Positions 1-26,789 of a stretch of 30,487 bases of DNA are shown here, piece after piece. The position numbers and the translations under genes were made by a program. Origin of the DNA: a virus. Its lineage: Duplodnaviria; Heunggongvirae; Uroviricota; Caudoviricetes. Under the pieces are notes generated by a model that was not told the DNA's origin, searched no databases, and worked only from the letters and a program-made list of their open reading frames with translations. Position 1 is the first letter of the stretch, and each line of letters starts with the position of its first letter. The stretch lies in IMG/VR virus record IMGVR_UViG_646311924_000014, one strand, 5' to 3'.

Positions 1-1236
1 CTATGATAACCGCGCATTCAACATGGCTACCTGTTCGTCGTTCATGTCATCAATCCACATACCGTAAATTTCATACACCATCTGCGCAGTTTCATGCCCC
101 ATTTGGCTGGCTATAAATGCCGGGTTCGCTCCTGCCGTCAACAGCCAGCAGGCAAAAGTATGCCGCGTATGGTACGGATTACGGCGGCGAATACCAGCAC
201 GTTTTACTGCTGCATTCCACCTTGCCCCCAAACTGCTTACCGAGTAATAAGGTTTTTGTTTTCCGTTACACACCCTGGGCATGAAAACAAAATGCAGTTT
301 TTGCTTTTCGGTTCTGCCGTACTCCCGATGATAAAAGGTGATTTCGCTTTTGCGATGATGCCCGGTCAGTTTGTATTGCTCCTTCAGTGCTTCAAGAGCA
401 GGCTGCAGTAGTGTTACCGTCCGGATCCCCGCATTTGTTTTTGGGGGACCGAACATATCCAGTATCGTCAGGTTTCTTCTGACATTCACAACTCCCTTCT
501 CGAAATCCACATCCTCCCACGCCAGAGCAGCCAGTTCCCCGTGACGAAGCCCGGAGTATACGGCAAATTTCCACAAGTTCTGGCTCTGTCCTTTTTCACT
601 TTCCATTAATGCATTGAATTCTGTTTTAGATAACGGGTCAGGCTTTATTCTGTTTCTCTGTAATTTCTTTACTCCTTCAAATGGTTTGGTTGATATAAAT
701 CCCGACTGATACGCAAAACGTAACAACGAACAGAGCAGGGCGATATAGTTATCAACTGTGCGCACGGTTCTTCCTTTTTTGTTGGATCTTGGATTATCCA
801 GGTAAAGCGTTTCTCCATGCAGCAGTTCATTCCGGTAGTTTAAGATATCGCTATAACGAATATGCGATATCGGAGTACTCTCACAAATTATTATCCTGAG
901 TGTTTTTAATTGTGATTTCGTTTTCTTCATTGTGTTTGTTGTTAACTCTGTTTCTTTAATTTTTGTCCAGATATCACAAAGCTCCCCGAACGTTTTTATG
1001 ACCCTCGTTGTCACCATTTTTGCCCCAGTGCTGGACTGGGGAAAACGTCTTAAATACTCAAACTCACCGGAATTGATTTCATGAACTATCAACGCTCTTA
1101 AATTCCCGGCTTTTTTAATGTTACTGTTAGTAACCTCCCAGCCTTTCAATGTTTCCCGACATCGTTTTCCTCGAAACATGAACCAGATGCGAATGTATTT
1201 ACCTCGAATCTCGACACCTGTTGGTAATTTAGACAT
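1..1236 (-). CDS. int: Phage tyrosine integrase (411 aa), Rac/lambdoid type; stop codon is at window position 1-3
   Basis: Full-length minus-strand ORF; C-terminal region carries the R...HxxR...Y catalytic pattern of tyrosine recombinases (HTRHTFA... YxxY); sits next to an excisionase-like gene. Confidence 0.9.
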   Translation of the reverse strand: MSKLPTGVEIRGKYIRIWFMFRGKRCRETLKGWEVTNSNIKKAGNLRALIVHEINSGEFEYLRRFPQSSTGAKMVTTRVIKTFGELCDIWTKIKETELTTNTMKKTKSQLKTLRIIICESTPISHIRYSDILNYRNELLHGETLYLDNPRSNKKGRTVRTVDNYIALLCSLLRFAYQSGFISTKPFEGVKKLQRNRIKPDPLSKTEFNALMESEKGQSQNLWKFAVYSGLRHGELAALAWEDVDFEKGVVNVRRNLTILDMFGPPKTNAGIRTVTLLQPALEALKEQYKLTGHHRKSEITFYHREYGRTEKQKLHFVFMPRVCNGKQKPYYSVSSLGARWNAAVKRAGIRRRNPYHTRHTFACWLLTAGANPAFIASQMGHETAQMVYEIYGMWIDDMNDEQVAMLNARLS

Positions 1237-1237
1237 A

Positions 1238-1453
1238 TCATGAGTCTTTGATAAACTGATTTATCTTTGGATAGTTATACCAGATAATCCCTCGCTTACT
1301 GTCTGGCTTCCCTAAAGGAGATACTCGTTTGAAGTGGAAGCCTTCCACCCAACAGTTCTGGCGGTATGCTTCAATTTGTCTGGCCCCCAGACCAGTGCGA
1401 AGCATCAGGCCGTATTCAACCATCCACTCTTCATTAAAGATTACTTGTGCCAT
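1238..1453 (-). CDS. xis: Excisionase-like small DNA-binding protein (71 aa from the internal ATG MAQVIF...)
   Basis: Small ORF immediately upstream of int on the same strand (stop at 1238-1240, int start at 1236); size and position typical of xis; start chosen at ATG 1451-1453. Confidence 0.6.
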
Positions 1454-1552
1454 CGCATCACCTCTGGCAGGCGCCAATGTTAGACTTAAATTGACGCCCG
1501 ATGTTGATTATTAATAATCAGCTATGAAGTTTTAATTTGAATACAATGCAAT

Positions 1553-1813
1553 TCACGAGGACTGAAGTTTCTCGCAATTAAAATTTATCAGTTTTACTTT
1601 CTGCTCTCTGGAAACGCCTGCTTCTTTTTTACCTGAGAGCATTTTTTCGCATTCTGATTTCGTTAGTTTAGATTTTGAATATCTTGTCCAGTTAGTAGGA
1701 GTGCCACCTTCCTTTTCAATAGTGGCGGTAATTTTATACATGAACACCTCCATTATTATTTCCAGTGGTTCGTTTATTTCATCGTTCGAGTGCTTCTTTT
1801 TCACTTCCACCAT
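1553..1813 (-). CDS. Hypothetical prophage early-region protein (86 aa)
   Basis: ORF with ATG start, same strand as int/xis, Lys-rich; no family recognised; overlaps the 3' end of the Lar-like ORF in another frame. Confidence 0.4.
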   Translation of the reverse strand: MVEVKKKHSNDEINEPLEIIMEVFMYKITATIEKEGGTPTNWTRYSKSKLTKSECEKMLSGKKEAGVSREQKVKLINFNCEKLQSS

Positions 1814-2238: not shown

Positions 2239-3129
2239 TCAGGCTGCCAGATCATCGTTTCCGATGGAAGCATAATAAGCTTTTTCTGCTTCTGCCGGAG
2301 GAGTATGGCCCAGCCTTCCCAGCAATCGTCGATTGTTATACCAGTCCACCCACGTTAGTGTGGCCAGTTCCACTTCTGCACGGTTTTTCCAGCTCTTACG
2401 GTGTATTACCTCCGCTTTGTAAAGACCATTGATGCTCTCAGCCATCGCGTTGTCATACGAGTCGCCTGTACTCCCTGTTGATGCCAGTAATCCGGCTTCT
2501 TTTAGTCGCTCCGTATAGGCCAGTGACACATACTGAGAGCCTTTATCGCTGTGATGGATGGTGCCAGACGGACGACGGGCCCACAACGCCTGCTCCAGCG
2601 CATCCAGCACGAATGTCGTTTCCATAGACGATGAGACCCGCCACCCCACGATGTATCCGGCAAACACATCAATGATAAACGCCACATAGACGAAGCCCTG
2701 CCATGTGCTGACGTAAGTAAAATCAGCCACCCACAGCTGGTCAGGTCGTTCTGCCACGAACTGACGGTTTACGCGGTCGCCTGCGGCAACGGCTTTCCGG
2801 CTGATGGTCGTACGGACCTTTTTACCCCGGAGAACACCGGCAAGTCCCATAACCGCCATGAGACGTGCCACTGTACATCTGGCCACCCTGATTCCTTCCC
2901 GTAACAACTGACGCCAGACTTTACGCACACCGTACACCTGATGATTTTCATCGTATACGCGCTGTATCTCTCTCTTCAGCCAGTCGTCGTGCTGCGCACG
3001 GGCACTGCGTTTATCCGGATGATGTCGCTGTTGCTGACAATGGTAATACGTTGACGGGGCAATATGCAGTTCGCTGCATACCGGTCCGACCCCGTACTGC
3101 TCACGCAGCTTATCCAGCAGTGGCATCAT
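2239..3129 (-). CDS. IS629 OrfB (DDE transposase catalytic domain, 296 aa; expressed as OrfAB by -1 frameshift)
   Basis: IS3-family OrfB sequence pattern (…HSDKGSQY…YDNAMAES…); starts at ATGATG directly after the A6 run that ends orfA. Confidence 0.9.
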
Positions 3130-3452
3130 TTTTTCCAGAGGCGGTCGAACTCCGCCTTCGCAAAATAAGCGGAAGCCTGGCGAAGGATATCGTTACTGCG
3201 GCGCAGTTCACGATTTTCACGTTCCAGCTCTTTCAGACGCTGACGTTCAGCGCTGGTGAGCCCACCATCACCGCCCCCGGTATCCCGCTCATGCTGGCGA
3301 ACCCAGACACGCAGAGTCTCCGGCGTACAGCCAATCTTTGGGGCAATGGAACAAATTGCCGCCCACTGTGAGTCATATTCATCCTGACTTTCCAGAACCA
3401 TACGAATCGCCCGCTGACGGACTTCGGGGGAAAAACGAGTATTTTTAGTCAT
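3126..3452 (-). CDS. IS629 OrfA (HTH transposase N-terminal protein, 108 aa)
   Basis: [23 protein letters not shown]... with a leucine-zipper-like C-terminus, typical IS3-family OrfA. Confidence 0.9.
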
Positions 3453-20384: not shown

Positions 20385-21128
20385 ATGACACAGACTGAAT
20401 CAGCGATTCTGGCGCATGCCCGGCGGTGTGCGCCAGCGGAGTCGTGCGGCTTCGTGGTGAGAACGCCGGAGGGGGAGCGGTATATCCCTTGTGTGAATAT
20501 CTCTGCAGAGCCGGAGGCGTATTTTCGTATTGCACCGGAAGACTGGCTGCGGGCAGAGATGCAGGGGGAGATTGTGGCACTGGTCCACAGTCATCCCGGT
20601 GGTCTGCCCTGGCTGAGCGAGGCCGACCGGCGGCTGCAGATAAAAAGTGCACTGTCCTGGTGGCTGGTCTGCCGGGGGGAAATTCATAAATTCCGCTGTG
20701 TGCCACATCTGACAGGACGGCGCTTTGAGCACGGGGTGACGGACTGTTACACGCTGTTCCGGGATGCCTACCATCTGGCGGGAATTGATATGCCGGATTT
20801 TGAGCGTGAGGATGACTGGTGGCGCAACGGTCAGAACCTGTACCTGGACAATATGGAGGCGACTGGTTTTTACAGGATTTCCCTGCCTTCCGCACAGCCT
20901 GGCGATATTCTGCTGTGCTGCTTTGGTGCTTCGGTACCGAACCATGCCGCCATTTACTGCGGCAACGGTGAGCTGCTTCACCATCTGCCTGAACAACTGA
21001 GTAAACGGGAGAGGTATTCCGAAAAATGGCAACGACGAACGCATTCAGCCTGGCGTCACCGCCACTGGCACGCATCTGCCTTCACGGGGATTTACAACGA
21101 TTTGGCCGCCGCCTCAGCCTGTATGTGA
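20385..21128 (+). CDS. K: Tail assembly protein K (lambda gpK homologue; JAB/MPN plus NlpC/P60-like domains)
   Basis: MTQTESAILAHARRCAPAESCGFVV…HSHPGG… closely matches lambda K; 3' end overlaps I by about 100 nt. Confidence 0.9.
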   Translation: MTQTESAILAHARRCAPAESCGFVVRTPEGERYIPCVNISAEPEAYFRIAPEDWLRAEMQGEIVALVHSHPGGLPWLSEADRRLQIKSALSWWLVCRGEIHKFRCVPHLTGRRFEHGVTDCYTLFRDAYHLAGIDMPDFEREDDWWRNGQNLYLDNMEATGFYRISLPSAQPGDILLCCFGASVPNHAAIYCGNGELLHHLPEQLSKRERYSEKWQRRTHSAWRHRHWHASAFTGIYNDLAAASACM

Positions 21129-21706
21129 ACACGGCAGCGGAAGCCATCCGGGCGCTGTCGTTACAGGTGCCCGGATTCCGCCGTCAGATGAACGAAGGCT
21201 GGTACCAGATACGTATTGCCGGTGATGACACGGCACCGGAGGCGGTGTACGCCCGTCTTCACGAACAGCTGGGTGAGGGAACGGTCATCCACATTGTGCC
21301 GCGACTGGCCGGGGCCGGAAAGGGTGGACTGCAGATTGTGCTGGGGGCGGCAGCCATCGTGGGCTCTTTCTTCACGGCCGGAGCATCGATGGCAGCCTGG
21401 GGTGCAGCGCTGAGTGCCGGCGGTTTTTCTGCCACCACGATGCTGTTTTCACTGGGTGCCAGCATGATACTGGGTGGTGTGGCACAGATGCTGGCCCCGA
21501 AGCCAAAAACACCGGAATACAGGGCAACGGATAACGGTAAACAGAACACGTACTTTTCGTCGCTGGACAACATGATTGCCCAGGGTAACCCGATGCCGGT
21601 GCCTTACGGGGAAATGCTGGTTGGCTCCCGCCGTATATCCCAGGACATCAGTACCCGTGATGAAGGCGGGGGCGGAAAGGTCGTGGTTATCGGGCGGCAG
21701 GCATAA
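21026..21706 (+). CDS. I: Tail assembly protein I (lambda gpI homologue)
   Basis: …ARICLHGDLQRFGRR…IHIVPRLAGAGKGG…NGKQNTYFSSLDNM… matches lambda I. Confidence 0.9.
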   Translation: MATTNAFSLASPPLARICLHGDLQRFGRRLSLYVNTAAEAIRALSLQVPGFRRQMNEGWYQIRIAGDDTAPEAVYARLHEQLGEGTVIHIVPRLAGAGKGGLQIVLGAAAIVGSFFTAGASMAAWGAALSAGGFSATTMLFSLGASMILGGVAQMLAPKPKTPEYRATDNGKQNTYFSSLDNMIAQGNPMPVPYGEMLVGSRRISQDISTRDEGGGGKVVVIGRQA

Positions 21707-21868
21707 AAGCGAAAAAATCCCGCAGTGCTCACGGACAGGAACTGCGGGAGCGTTACGAAGATTGAGTGTAAGGAATTATTCTTATGTCACGACAAAAACA
21801 TTAACTCAGAGAGGGAGGATGTGCCGTTCTTTTCAGGGAGAAAGGATTTATCGTCCTGAGGAATAAAG

Positions 21869-21892
21869 GTAAGGGGCCCGCCCCTTACCTGA
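21869..21892 (-). terminator. 10-bp perfect stem-loop immediately downstream of sodC
   Basis: AGGTAAGGGG-CCCG-CCCCTTACCT, 5 bp beyond the sodC stop. Confidence 0.4.
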
Positions 21893-21896
21893 CTGA

Positions 21897-22424
21897 TTAT
21901 TGAATGATGCCGCAGGCCATTCTCGCACCACCACCGCCCAGGGGCTCCGGATGGTCATGATGGTTATCACCGCCAGCATGAAGCATGAGAGAACGCCCTT
22001 TAATCTCTTTTAATGAGTTCAGTCTCGGGGCCAGGACCGGGTAGTTCGCTTTTCCGTCATGCGTCACGAACAGCGCAGGGAGGTCGCCCAGGTGTCCATC
22101 CGGAGACCAGGGGCCAAGATGTTTGCCGGTGTTTTTCGGGTCAAAGTGACCGCCAGCCGATAATGCTGCGACCGGTTTTCCGTCTTTCAGTGCCGGGGCG
22201 CAATTTCCTTTTTCGTGCACATGAAAACCATGAATGCCTTCAGACAGAGAGTGAAGGGCTGGTGTGAACAGCAGACCGTAGGGGGTCTCCTGAATGGTTA
22301 TTTTTCCAATGCTGACTTCTTTTCCGTCAGCACTGACAAGGTTCATTGGGACTTCCTGTTCTGCTGCGTATCCGCATGATGCTGCTGTCAGCATGGCAAT
22401 GGCAGCAATGATTTTACATTTCAT
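21897..22424 (-). CDS. sodC: Periplasmic Cu/Zn superoxide dismutase (prophage-borne SodC)
   Basis: Signal peptide [20 protein letters not shown]; Cu/Zn SOD motifs (GFHVHEKG, histidine ligands, C-terminal [12 protein letters not shown]); opposite strand to the tail operon. Confidence 0.9.
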
Positions 22425-22557
22425 AAAACCCTCATTAATTCCGTTAACAGACTGAGCTTGCTGGTTACAGGGTAACAAACAGCGTTCTGATGATATCGCG
22501 CAATAGCTGTGCAATATCCTATCACTGCGATTAATAATACCAATTGAGAGGAACATT

Positions 22558-25500
22558 ATGGGCAAAGGTGGCGGCAGGGCGCACACGCCTCGAGAGGCGA
22601 AGGATAATCTCAAATCCACGCAGATGATGAGTGTGATTGATGCGATTGGTGAGGGACCGATAGAAGGCCCGGTGAAGGGGCTGCAGAGTATCCTGGTGAA
22701 CAAAACCCCGCTGACGGACACGGACGGTAATCCCGTGATACACGGTGTGACTGCGGTCTGGCGTGCCGGGGAGCAGGAGCAGACACCACCGGAAGGCTTT
22801 GAGTCCTCCGGAGCTGAAACCGGACTGGGCGTGGAAGTGACGAAGGCAAAGCCGGTGACGCGCACCATTACGTCCGCGAACATTGACCGCCTGCGGGTTA
22901 CCTTCGGGGTGCAGTCACTGGTGGAGACCACCTCAAAGGGTGACCGTAACCCGACGTCTGTCCGCCTGCTGATTCAGCTTGAGCGTGGTGGTAAATGGAT
23001 GACGGAAAAGGATGTCACCATTAACGGCAAGACCACCTCGCAGTTCCTGGCGTCGGTGATTCTGGATAATCTGCCGCCCCGGCCCTTTAACATCCGGATG
23101 GTCAGGGAGACGGCGGACAGCACCACGGACCAGCTGCAGAATAAGACGCTCTGGTCGTCATACACCGAAATCATCGATGTGAAACAGTGCTACCCGAACA
23201 CGGCGATTGTGGGGCTGCAGGTGGATGCGGAGCAGTTTGGCGGTCAGCAGATGACGGTGAACTACCATATCCGCGGTCGCATTATTCAGGTGCCGTCAAA
23301 CTATGACCCGGAAAAACGCACGTACAGCGGCATCTGGGACGGCAGCCTGAAACCGGCATACAGCAACAACCCGGCCTGGTGTCTGTGGGACATGCTGACT
23401 CACCCGCGCTACGGGATGGGAAAACGTCTGGGGGCGGCGGATGTGGACAAATGGGCGCTGTATGCCATTGCGCAGTACTGCGACCAGACGGTGCCGGATG
23501 GTTTCGGGGGCACAGAGCCGCGGATGACCTTTAATGCATACCTGTCACAACAGCGTAAGGCGTGGGACGTCCTCAGTGATTTCTGCTCGGCGATGCGCTG
23601 TATGCCGGTATGGAACGGCCAGACGCTGACGTTCGTTCAGGACCGCCCGTCGGATGTGGTGTGGCCGTACACCAACAGCGATGTGGTGGTGGATGATAAC
23701 GGCGTGGGGTTTCGCTACAGCTTCAGCGCCCTGAAGGACCGCCACACGGCGGTGGAGGTGAATTACACCGACCCGCAGAACGGCTGGCAGACCTCCACGG
23801 AACTGGTGGAAGACCCGGAAGCCATACTGCGCTACGGGCGCAACCTGCTGAAGATGGATGCGTTCGGCTGCACCAGTCGCGGTCAGGCCCACCGTGCCGG
23901 GCTGTGGGTGATAAAGACCGGACTGCTGGAAACGCAGACGGTGGATTTCACGCTCGGGTCACAGGGGCTGCGTCACACACCCGGTGACATTATTGAAATC
24001 TGTGATAACGACTATGCCGGGACCATGACCGGCGGACGTATCCTGTCCATCGATGCCGCCAGCCGCACCCTGACACTGGACCGTGAGGTGACCCTGCCGG
24101 AGACAGGTGCCGCCACGGTGAACCTGATTAACGGCAGCGGTAAGCCGGTGAGCGTGGCCATCACTGCACACCCCGCGCCGGACCGGATACAGGTCAGCAC
24201 CCTGCCTGATGGTGTGGAGACATACGGTGTATGGGGACTCTCCCTGCCGTCACTGCGTCGTCGCCTGTTCCGCTGTGTCTCCATCCGGGAAAACACGGAC
24301 GGCACCTTTGCCATCACGGCGGTGCAGCACGTGCCGGAAAAAGAAGCCATCGTGGATAACGGGGCGCACTTTGACGGCGACCAGAGCGGCACGGTGAATG
24401 GTGTCACGCCGCCAGCGGTGCAGCACCTGACCGCCGAAGTCACCGCAGACAGCGGGGAATATCAGGTGCTGGCGCGCTGGGACACGCCGAAGGTGGTGAA
24501 GGGCGTGAGCTTCCTGCTTCGCCTGACCGTGGCAGCGGATGACGGCAGTGAGCGGCTGGTCAGCACGGCCAGGACGACAGAAACCACATACCGCTTCACG
24601 CAACTGGCGCCGGGGAACTACAGGTTGACAGTCCGGGCGGTAAATGCGTGGGGACAGCAGGGCGATCCGGCATCGGTATCGTTCCGGATTGCCGCACCGG
24701 CAGCGCCGTCTCGGATTGAGCTGACACCGGGCTATTTTCAGATAACCGCCACGCCGCATCTTGCGGTTTATGATCCGACGGTACAGTTTGAGTTCTGGTT
24801 CTCGGAAAAGCGGATTGCTGATATCAGGCAGGTTGAAACCACAGCCCGCTATCTTGGCACGGCGCTGTACTGGATAGCTGCCAGTATCAATATCAAACCG
24901 GGCCATGATTATTACTTTTATATCCGCAGTGTGAACACCGTTGGCAAATCGGCATTTGTAGAGGCTGTCGGTCAGCCGAGTGATGATGCATCAGGCTATC
25001 TGGATTTTTTCAAAGGCGAGATAGGGAAAACCCATCTGGCTCAGGAGCTGTGGACGCAGATTGATAACGGTCAGCTTGCGCCTGACCTGACTGAAATCAG
25101 GACGTCCATAACGGATGTCAGCAATGAAATAACACAGACCGTCAATAAGAAACTGGAAGACCAGAGTGCAGCGATCCAGCAGATACAGAAGGTTCAGGTT
25201 GATACAAATAATAACCTGAACAGCATGTGGGCAGTGAAGCTGCAGCAGATGCAGGACGGACGCCTTTATATTGCGGGTATCGGTGCCGGTATTGAGAACA
25301 CCCCCGACGGCATGCAGAGTCAGGTGCTGCTGGCAGCAGACAGGATTGCGATGATTAATCCTGCGAATGGCAACACAAAGCCGATGTTTGTTGGTCAGGG
25401 CGATCAGATATTCATGAATGAAGTGTTCCTGAAATATCTGACGGCTCCCACCATTACCAGCGGCGGTAATCCTCCGGCATTTTCCCTGACACCAGACGGG

Positions 25501-26055
25501 CGACTGACGGCGAAAAATGCGGATATCAGTGGCAGTGTGAATGCGAACTCAGGAGCGCTCAACAATGTCACGATTAACCAGAACTGTACGATTAAGGGCA
25601 TGCTGGAGGCGACCCAGGTCAGAGGGGATTTCGTTAAAGCTGTATCAAAAGCCTTCCCGAAAAAAGTCGGTACGTGGGGTAACACGGAAACACCAAACGG
25701 TACGGTTACAGTCACCATCAGCGATGATCATAACTTTGACCGCCAGATTATTATTCCGCCCATTATTTTTAACGGTATAGCGTATGACGATCCGGGGAGC
25801 GGAAATAACCCAGGAGGCACGCGATACACGGGGTATGGTTTTGAAGTTCGCAAAAACGGCGTATTAATCGCATCCAGAGAAACTAAAGGGGCCATTCCCG
25901 GTAGTTACAGTGCAGTTATTGATATGCCTAGTGGTGGTGGTAGCGTCACTCTGGAGTTTAAGATTTTCCAGAAAGGCAATCAGGGGGCAGGCAATATCAC
26001 CGACTGTACGGTGATTGTGACCAAAAAAGCTGCTTCCGGCATCAGTATTCGTTGA
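22558..26055 (+). CDS. J: Host specificity / central tail fibre protein J (1165 aa)
   Basis: Long colinear similarity to recalled lambda J from [18 protein letters not shown] through the fibronectin-like middle region; extreme C-terminus diverged. Confidence 0.95.
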
Positions 26056-26125: not shown

Positions 26126-26725
26126 ATGCGTAAACTTTATGCCGCCATTTTGTCCGCAGCCATTTGTCTGACCGTATCCGGTGCGCCTGCATGGGCGTCT
26201 GAGCAGCAGGCCACGCTGAGCGCGGGGTATCTTCATGTCTCGACGAACGCTCCCGGTAGCGATAATCTTAACGGGATTAACGTGAAATACCGTTATGAAT
26301 TCACGGACACGCTGGGGCTGGTGACGTCATTCAGCTATGCAGGAGACAGGAATCGCCAGATTACCCGTTACAGCGATACCCGCTGGCATGAAGATTCCGT
26401 GCGTAACCGCTGGTTCAGCGTAATGGCGGGGCCGTCTGTGCGCGTGAATGAATGGTTCAGCGCGTATGCGATGGCGGGAGTGGCTTACAGCCGTGTGTCG
26501 ACTTTCTCCGGGGATTATCTCCGCGTAACTGACAACAAGGGGAAAACGCACGATGTGCTGACCGGAAGTGATGACGGTCGCCACAGCAACACGTCTCTGG
26601 CGTGGGGGGCTGGCGTGCAGTTTAACCCGACCGAATCCGTGGCCATTGATATTGCTTATGAAGGCTCCGGCAGTGGCGACTGGCGCACTGACGGTTTCAT
26701 CGTGGGTGTCGGTTATAAGTTCTGA
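26126..26725 (+). CDS. lom: Lom-like outer membrane protein (Ail/Lom/OmpX family)
   Basis: Signal peptide, alternating amphipathic beta-strand pattern, C-terminal aromatic (…GYKF); position after J as in lambda. Confidence 0.85.
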
Positions 26726-26778: not shown

Positions 26779-26789
26779 GTGGGGTGAAT

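Follow-up and report, generated by a model that had tools for sequence, protein, structure and literature searches.

An antisense SodC-F1 moron in the I-J tail gene spacer of a lambdoid STEC prophage, next to a putative PasB-type sRNA remnant

Two phage-borne genes for a Cu,Zn superoxide dismutase (SOD), named sodC-F1 and sodC-F2, were described in E. coli O157:H7 on the prophages named CP-933R and CP-933V. They differ only at nucleotide 335, where T encodes Leu112 in F1 and C encodes Pro in F2 (D'Orazio et al. 2008, PMC2569942). The SodC-F enzyme accumulates in uninduced cultures in log phase, in stationary phase and anaerobically, and a 299-bp fragment upstream of the sodC-F ATG drives lacZ in K-12 independently of RpoS (PMC2569942). 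Part of the product is cut by signal peptidase I behind residue 20 and becomes soluble in the periplasm, while the rest is lipid-modified at Cys17 (signal peptidase II) and stays in the membrane (PMC2569942). SodC-F1 is a dimer with 19,380 U/mg, a specific activity roughly threefold that of chromosomal SodC, and its resistance to protease, EDTA and heat by far exceeds that of the chromosomal enzyme (PMC2569942). Mutants lacking sodC-F1/F2 survive H2O2 less well; this published phenotype concerns H2O2 sensitivity in vitro, and losing chromosomal sodC in addition does not add to it (PMC2569942).

Related enzymes are known from the E. coli chromosome and from Salmonella phages. Chromosomal E. coli SodC (1ESO) has the same fold and ligands as the enzyme studied here, is periplasmic as well and shows about 60% identity to it (in agreement with the 61% given in PMC2569942). 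It is however monomeric and RpoS-dependent, is made only aerobically in stationary phase, lacks a lipobox and is inferior in both activity and stability (PMC2569942). Salmonella phage Gifsy-2 carries sodCI (STM1044), likewise a phage-borne antisense moron for a dimeric Cu,Zn SOD within the tail gene cluster. Expression and stability properties of its product are similar to those of SodC-F (D'Orazio et al., PMC2569942), but its slot differs, lying between a lom-like gene and gpL, and it shows 58.8% amino-acid identity to our protein. The sodCIII gene (STM0924) of Salmonella phage Fels-1 occupies the same slot as the gene described here, between the gpI and gpJ homologues, in the same antisense orientation, and also encodes a Cu,Zn SOD with a signal peptide. 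Both proteins share 60.5% amino-acid identity, whereas the non-coding flanks are unrelated; in Fels-1 the sodCIII cassette fills the entire spacer and a PasB-like element is absent. The tail fibre region of Fels-1 also contains the Hfq-binding sRNA isrG (L004 385-663, Rfam 290 bits), a further sRNA among phage tail genes.

Small RNAs have been reported from this region too. PasB is an 83-nt Hfq-dependent sRNA of EPEC E2348/69 (NC_011601.1, 1466343..1466261, minus strand; Pearl Mizrahi et al. 2021, PMC8550237, Table S6). Since I ends at 1466255 and J starts at 1466496 in this genome, PasB is located directly after I and antisense to the tail operon. In Sakai the Hfq-CRAC peaks EcOnc22, 23 and 24 were reported (Tree et al. 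2014, Table S2). We mapped these peaks 22-84 nt from the start of J in the prophages Sp15, Sp14 and Sp11 (L006 3215-3275; L007, L008), again antisense to the tail operon. The Sakai coordinates of that study were checked for an offset and none was found, the PasA probe mapping inside the EcOnc51 peak. EcOnc22-24 lie over a hairpin which is followed by a T run on the sense strand, resembling an intrinsic terminator just upstream of J.

We compared these systems with a sodC gene in the virus record IMGVR_UViG_646311924_000014, a stretch of 30,487 nucleotides referred to here as the window. The window represents a lambdoid prophage; along 22.5 kb it shares 98.8-99.7% identity with prophages from STEC strains, O111 among them. 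The gene lies in an 851-bp spacer (21707-22557) extending exactly from the stop codon of I to the ATG of J. Tail assembly protein I (21026..21706, plus strand) forms the left flank of the slot; it matches Pfam Lambda_tail_I (7.4e-16) and is called 'tail assembly protein' by RefSeq in identical loci. The right flank consists of the J ribosome-binding site (GAGAGGAA) and the gene for tail tip protein J (together 22546..26055, plus strand; CDS 22558-26055), which contains six GpJ-specific Pfam domains. Base composition differs between cassette and neighbours, with 52.8% GC in the sodC CDS and 39.8% in its upstream region compared with 60.4% in I, 56.7% in J and 54% in the whole window.

The sodC CDS comprises 175 aa plus stop (21897..22424, minus strand). 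Its product matches Pfam PF00080 Sod_Cu with E 3.9e-32; the alignment, at 111.9 bits (cut-off 28.9), spans profile positions 3-133 of 133. For the NCBIfam SodC equivalog NF007628 it reaches 218.4 bits (cut-off 165) at positions 2-172 of 172. Two dozen solved bacterial Cu,Zn SODs, including the enzymes of Haemophilus ducreyi, Yersinia, Salmonella (SodCI) and E. coli, match with E values of 1e-48 to 1e-62, and with solved homologues at about 1e-62 the fold is settled. A program-made ORF list gave 344 aa instead of 175 aa for this frame, as the list extends to the most upstream start. We regard the ATG at 22424 as the real start for three reasons: the ribosome-binding site GAGGG (22429..22433, minus strand), read from the sequence, precedes it by 4 nt, the HMM alignments begin at residue 2, and the RefSeq annotation covers the same 528 nt. 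Residues 1-20 form a signal peptide: its n-region contains basic residues, its core is hydrophobic, and it carries the lipobox AASC at 22385-22374, which includes Cys17. Alignment to human SOD1 places the Cu ligands at His68, 70, 93 and 149 (human His46, 48, 63, 120) and the Zn ligands at His93, 102, 111 and Asp114 (human His63, 71, 80, Asp83), and these columns are likewise conserved when the PDB structures are aligned. The counterparts of human Arg143 and Cys146 are Arg168 and Cys171, Arg168 being the active-site arginine. Cys75 and Cys171 align with both cysteines of E. coli SodC and constitute the disulfide pair.

An earlier reading made from the letters alone, the first-pass annotation, had proposed a Cu/Zn SOD with a signal peptide on the strand opposite to the tail operon. 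Profile matches, intact metal-ligand histidines and signal peptide all agree with this description, and the comparison with chromosomal sodC that it suggested gave the identity of about 60% mentioned above. It had also pointed to phage-borne sodC genes in pathogenic enterobacteria, of which Fels-1 sodCIII and Gifsy-2 sodCI are examples. The feature is real and had been correctly described and interpreted. Its proposed function, periplasmic protection against oxidative stress, needs partial correction: the oxidative-stress part is in line with the H2O2 sensitivity of deletion mutants (PMC2569942), but a purely periplasmic location is not, as the protein is partly a lipoprotein (AASC, Cys17).

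Codon 112 of the window gene is CTG (Leu), nucleotide 335 being T, and the gene is therefore the SodC-F1 allele. Hence it was already known and is the same gene as the characterised SodC-F1 of O157:H7, with which it has Leu112, the 175-aa precursor, the 155-aa mature form and AASC in common. The 851-bp spacer is 100% identical to sodC-annotated loci in O157:H7, O111, O145 and O103 genomes, and no difference from O157:H7 SodC-F1 is detectable in the gene. The prophage host does differ, that of the window gene being closest to O111-type STEC prophages versus O157:H7 for SodC-F1/F2. As sodC is annotated in hundreds of genomes and was biochemically characterised in 2008, its discovery value is low. 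Only modestly new are the composite nature of the spacer and a promoter-deletion scar beside a PasB-type sRNA body.

Searching 5,426 complete E. coli genomes, we found the spacer at full length and with 99.6-100% identity in about 546, mostly STEC. They include O157:H7, O111, O145, O103 and others, with sodC annotated (WP_000649829.1). The gene is also annotated in the deposited Stx2a-converting phages EH2201 and EH1846. By contrast, 188 of the 190 phage records matching the I-J region show an I-J gap of only about 240 bp without sodC, and the same short gap lacking sodC is seen in the Sakai prophages Sp11, Sp14 and Sp15 and in PP6 of E2348/69. Megablast matches of sodC-less genomes end at query base 106, corresponding to window position 21812, and homology picks up again at the J ATG. 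The about 105 bp at 21707-21811 thus belong to the phage backbone and share 92-98% identity with PhiR5_1 and O26:H11 11368, whose spacers lack sodC. Where the whole spacer had been taken as the moron at first, this holds for the sodC cassette and not for the first roughly 105 bp, which carry a PasB-type remnant of the backbone. The cassette itself is a moron in the sense of Juhala and Hendrix: extra DNA between neighbouring genes with its own terminator and a differing base composition. No transposon-like direct or inverted repeats were found flanking the cassette, and ordinary mosaic cassette exchange therefore looks likelier than transposition. In a donor scan with one genome per species, none of the matches listed to sodC-F exceeded about 69% identity; the best among them, at 62-69%, came from Serratia, Pseudomonas and Leminorella.

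Transcription of sodC would end at a predicted intrinsic terminator (21862..21890, minus strand) identified by terminator scan, in which a 10-bp GC-rich stem (21890-21867) is followed by TTTATT. The fold has a free energy of -17.4 kcal/mol with z = -2.67, its T tract is interrupted, and the terminator is kept in a divergent sodC allele of isolate AF10, described below. An own stem-loop terminator had been part of the first description and was recovered here. A weak Rfam match to STnc400 lies over the sodC 3' end and terminator (21857-21933, minus strand). With 23 bits it is far below the gathering score of 80, so that we rejected this identity; the match is probably terminator-hairpin noise. 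Within the spacer, Rfam searches of the window and of related loci gave no match reaching the gathering score, STnc400 being the sole hit there.

Upstream of sodC, 133 bp separate its ATG from that of J, and with 39.8% GC this region is AT-rich as had been noted. It contains the J ribosome-binding site and presumably the sodC promoter. The view that it is shared divergently with J did not hold, as J needs no promoter here and the region is therefore not truly divergent. A stringent sigma-70 consensus scan of the sodC upstream region detected no promoter. Relaxed position weight matrix (PWM) scoring yielded a low-confidence candidate, TTGGTA-N16-TGaTAGGAT (22516..22543, minus strand), scoring 9.3 compared with 8.5 for the 90th percentile of the background. 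The -10 of the candidate is not kept in the AF10 allele. A 32-nt block (CTATTGCGCGATATCATCAGAACGCTGTTTGT; 22475..22506, minus strand) is 100% identical in both sodC alleles while the surrounding spacer is 78% identical. Judged by this conservation it is the best candidate for a functional element, perhaps part of the promoter or a site for a regulator. The block could not be matched to any known regulator box, and inspection of the sodC upstream region by eye for PhoP, FNR and Fur-like boxes revealed only weak partial matches.

Taken together, the locus is almost certainly the SodC-F1 moron carried by a lambdoid STEC prophage, in the form of a self-contained antisense cassette of about 745 bp in the I-J spacer that is expressed in the lysogen and yields an exported SOD. 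The cassette would consist of promoter, ribosome-binding site, CDS and terminator. In the lysogen, host RNA polymerase would transcribe sodC from a promoter within the AT-rich stretch that immediately precedes J, independently of both late (Q-dependent) transcription and RpoS. The signal peptide would direct export; signal peptidase I would release part of the protein as a soluble dimer into the periplasm, the other part being lipidated at Cys17 and anchored in the membrane. Superoxide would be dismutated at a canonical Cu (His68, 70, 93, 149) and Zn (His93, 102, 111, Asp114) site, by an enzyme expected to surpass the monomeric chromosomal SodC in activity and stability. Anatomy, ligands, allele identity, distribution and absence from sister phages were observed directly in this analysis; expression, localisation, activity and the H2O2 phenotype are taken from the literature (PMC2569942). 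The exact sodC promoter is a prediction, with the negative stringent scan and the poor conservation of the best relaxed candidate in AF10 speaking against it, and any role in infection is likewise presumptive, resting on the analogy to SodCI of Salmonella.

Location of sodC within the tail morphogenesis operon could indicate that the enzyme benefits the phage in lytic growth, perhaps as a safeguard for the virions or the producing cell, instead of the lysogen. We consider this highly improbable, since the gene runs opposite to the late operon and possesses a terminator of its own, the protein is expressed in uninduced cells from a promoter that works on a plasmid in K-12 (PMC2569942), and most sister phages do without sodC. 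Expression in the lysogen independent of late transcription, as originally proposed, is consistent with the published uninduced expression and the active 299-bp upstream fragment (PMC2569942). The cassette is a clear textbook case of a moron, and sodC is a lysogenic-conversion gene with which STEC may better withstand oxidative stress.

In the blood isolate AF10 (NZ_OZ546911.1, L091 1493-2396) the I-J slot is occupied by a divergent sodC, which shares 81% amino-acid and 79% nucleotide identity with the window gene and keeps all ligands, a lipobox (LATSC) and the GAGGG ribosome-binding site. This type of allele is rare, with at most about 6 of the 5,426 genomes falling into that identity band. 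Between the two alleles, 21% apart in nucleotides, dN/dS is 0.13, which indicates purifying selection as judged from the coding sequences. These values bear on the question whether sodC-F has spread simply because the phage tail module spread, as a neutral hitch-hiker without benefit for the lysogen. Near-clonal identity in hundreds of genomes fits such a recent phage spread, and a triple sodC mutant was no more sensitive than single-class mutants (PMC2569942). Neutral spread nevertheless appears improbable to us in view of the low dN/dS with all catalytic residues kept, the antisense sodC genes of the Salmonella phages Fels-1 and Gifsy-2 and the lowered H2O2 survival of sodC-F1/F2 deletion mutants (PMC2569942).

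Within the backbone part of the spacer we found a candidate PasB-family sRNA body with intrinsic terminator (21712..21794, minus strand), 92% identical to the element in the PhiR5_1 and O26:H11 11368 spacers. The terminator (21748-21712, minus strand) consists of CCCGCAG...CTGCGGG followed by T6 with a hairpin energy of -16.1 kcal/mol and is the second minus-strand terminator of the spacer. The published PasB Northern probe (AATCCCGCAGTGATCGCGGAGCT) corresponds to the terminator hairpin of the element. PasB of E2348/69 (PMC8550237; Zhu et al. 2026 preprint) lies at the same place after the I stop, on the same strand and with the same terminator hairpin. Based on shared position, strand and probe hairpin, we therefore interpret 21794-21712 as a diverged PasB-family body plus terminator. 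The PhiR5_1 copy is intermediate, sharing about 77% with PasB and 92% with the window copy, whereas direct local alignment of the window element to PasB of E2348/69 covers the terminator only (22 of 24 positions). PasB is not contained in Rfam 15, with zero matches on the loci tested (L009, L002 and Sakai Sp15, L006). An Hfq-dependent transcript of about 83 nt has been shown for this family in E2348/69 only, and the window copy is a putative member. Two other identities were considered for the element. AgvB/AsxR-type anti-sRNAs (Tree 2014) were rejected because they sit near pR' and not in the tail region, and EcOnc22-24 were rejected because their peaks lie in the J-proximal half of sodC-less spacers.

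A near-consensus promoter, TTCACA-N16-TATAAT, precedes the PasB body in E2348/69, PhiR5_1 and AF10; the -10 reads TAATAAT in O26 11368 and AATAAT in Sakai Sp15. In the window TTCACA-N16-TATAAT is absent, and the best PWM match at this position is weak. The arrangement in AF10 would account for the difference. Its minus strand shows the order sodC, terminator, about 50 nt, TTCACA-N16-TATAAT, PasB body and terminator, with the PasB promoter bracketed by CTCTGA and CTCTGC. Removing the 49 nt between these repeats gives exactly the junction found in the window, so that the left junction of the sodC cassette (CTCTGAGTTAAT; 21800..21811, minus strand) appears as the scar of a 49-nt deletion by comparison with AF10. 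The common STEC allele is thus best read as an AF10-like arrangement that would have lost the PasB promoter by deletion at the short repeat CTCTG. The sodC alleles accordingly differ in the survival of a neighbouring sRNA promoter.

Loss of this promoter raises the question whether the PasB-like RNA could still be made as part of a two-gene unit. RNA polymerase might read through a weak sodC terminator, with termination or processing at the strong second terminator, and sodC expression would then also deliver an Hfq-binding 3'-UTR sRNA. The element is suitably placed, on the same strand as sodC and 68 nt (21795-21862) downstream of its terminator. Body and terminator of the element are intact and match copies that have a promoter at 92% identity, the T tract of the sodC terminator is interrupted, and PasB is a genuine Hfq-dependent sRNA in E2348/69 (PMC8550237). 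On the other hand the sodC hairpin is strong (-17.4 kcal/mol), and the supplementary tables of the EHEC Hfq-CRAC paper mention neither 'sodC' nor 'superoxide'. The remnant may also be too young to have decayed: with the spacer at least 99.6% identical across genomes, conservation carries no signal on it. We therefore regard such read-through as unlikely, though less so than the neutral spread discussed above. If it did occur, the deletion at the CTCTG repeats would have fused a formerly independent sRNA gene with a protein moron into a single transcription unit, the sRNA being co-regulated with sodC.

The I-J spacer of the window is thus a composite of a PasB-type sRNA element and the sodC cassette. 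The J-proximal segment is the part replaced by the sodC cassette, and the segment corresponding to EcOnc22-24 is therefore absent from the window. Across the genomes compared, the I-J spacer repeatedly hosts antisense cargo, namely PasB, EcOnc22-24, sodC-F and, in Fels-1, sodCIII. The composite spacer, its differing alleles and the use of the same slot in Fels-1 may be of modest use for work on prophage sRNAs and on moron insertion sites.

Several other genes were noticed in the prophage. The left prophage end carries a tyrosine integrase of 411 aa (1-1236, minus strand) and an excisionase-like ORF (DUF1233; 1238-1477, minus strand). Adjoining the integrase is a RalR-type toxin ORF (1553-1813, minus strand; Pfam DUF1187, 2e-38), which is overlapped by the antitoxin sRNA RalA (1557-1735, plus strand; Rfam RF02694, 225 bits), together representing a type I toxin-antitoxin locus. 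An IS3-family element (2239-3452, minus strand) is found in the early region, composed of orfA (3126-3452) and orfB (2239-3129) and including an ALIL frameshifting pseudoknot (Rfam RF01497, 3055-3171). Immediately 3' of J lies a gene for a Lom/Ail outer-membrane protein (26126-26725, plus strand; Pfam Ail_Lom, 1e-117); lom is a second classic lysogenic-conversion gene of the tail region. It is followed by a collagen-repeat tail fibre gene at 26784-28103. Downstream of the tail fibre gene, three tandem genes for NleG-family type III effectors (Pfam T3SS_NleG, 1e-43 to 1e-47) occupy 28436-30487 on the plus strand, the third copy being cut by the end of the window.
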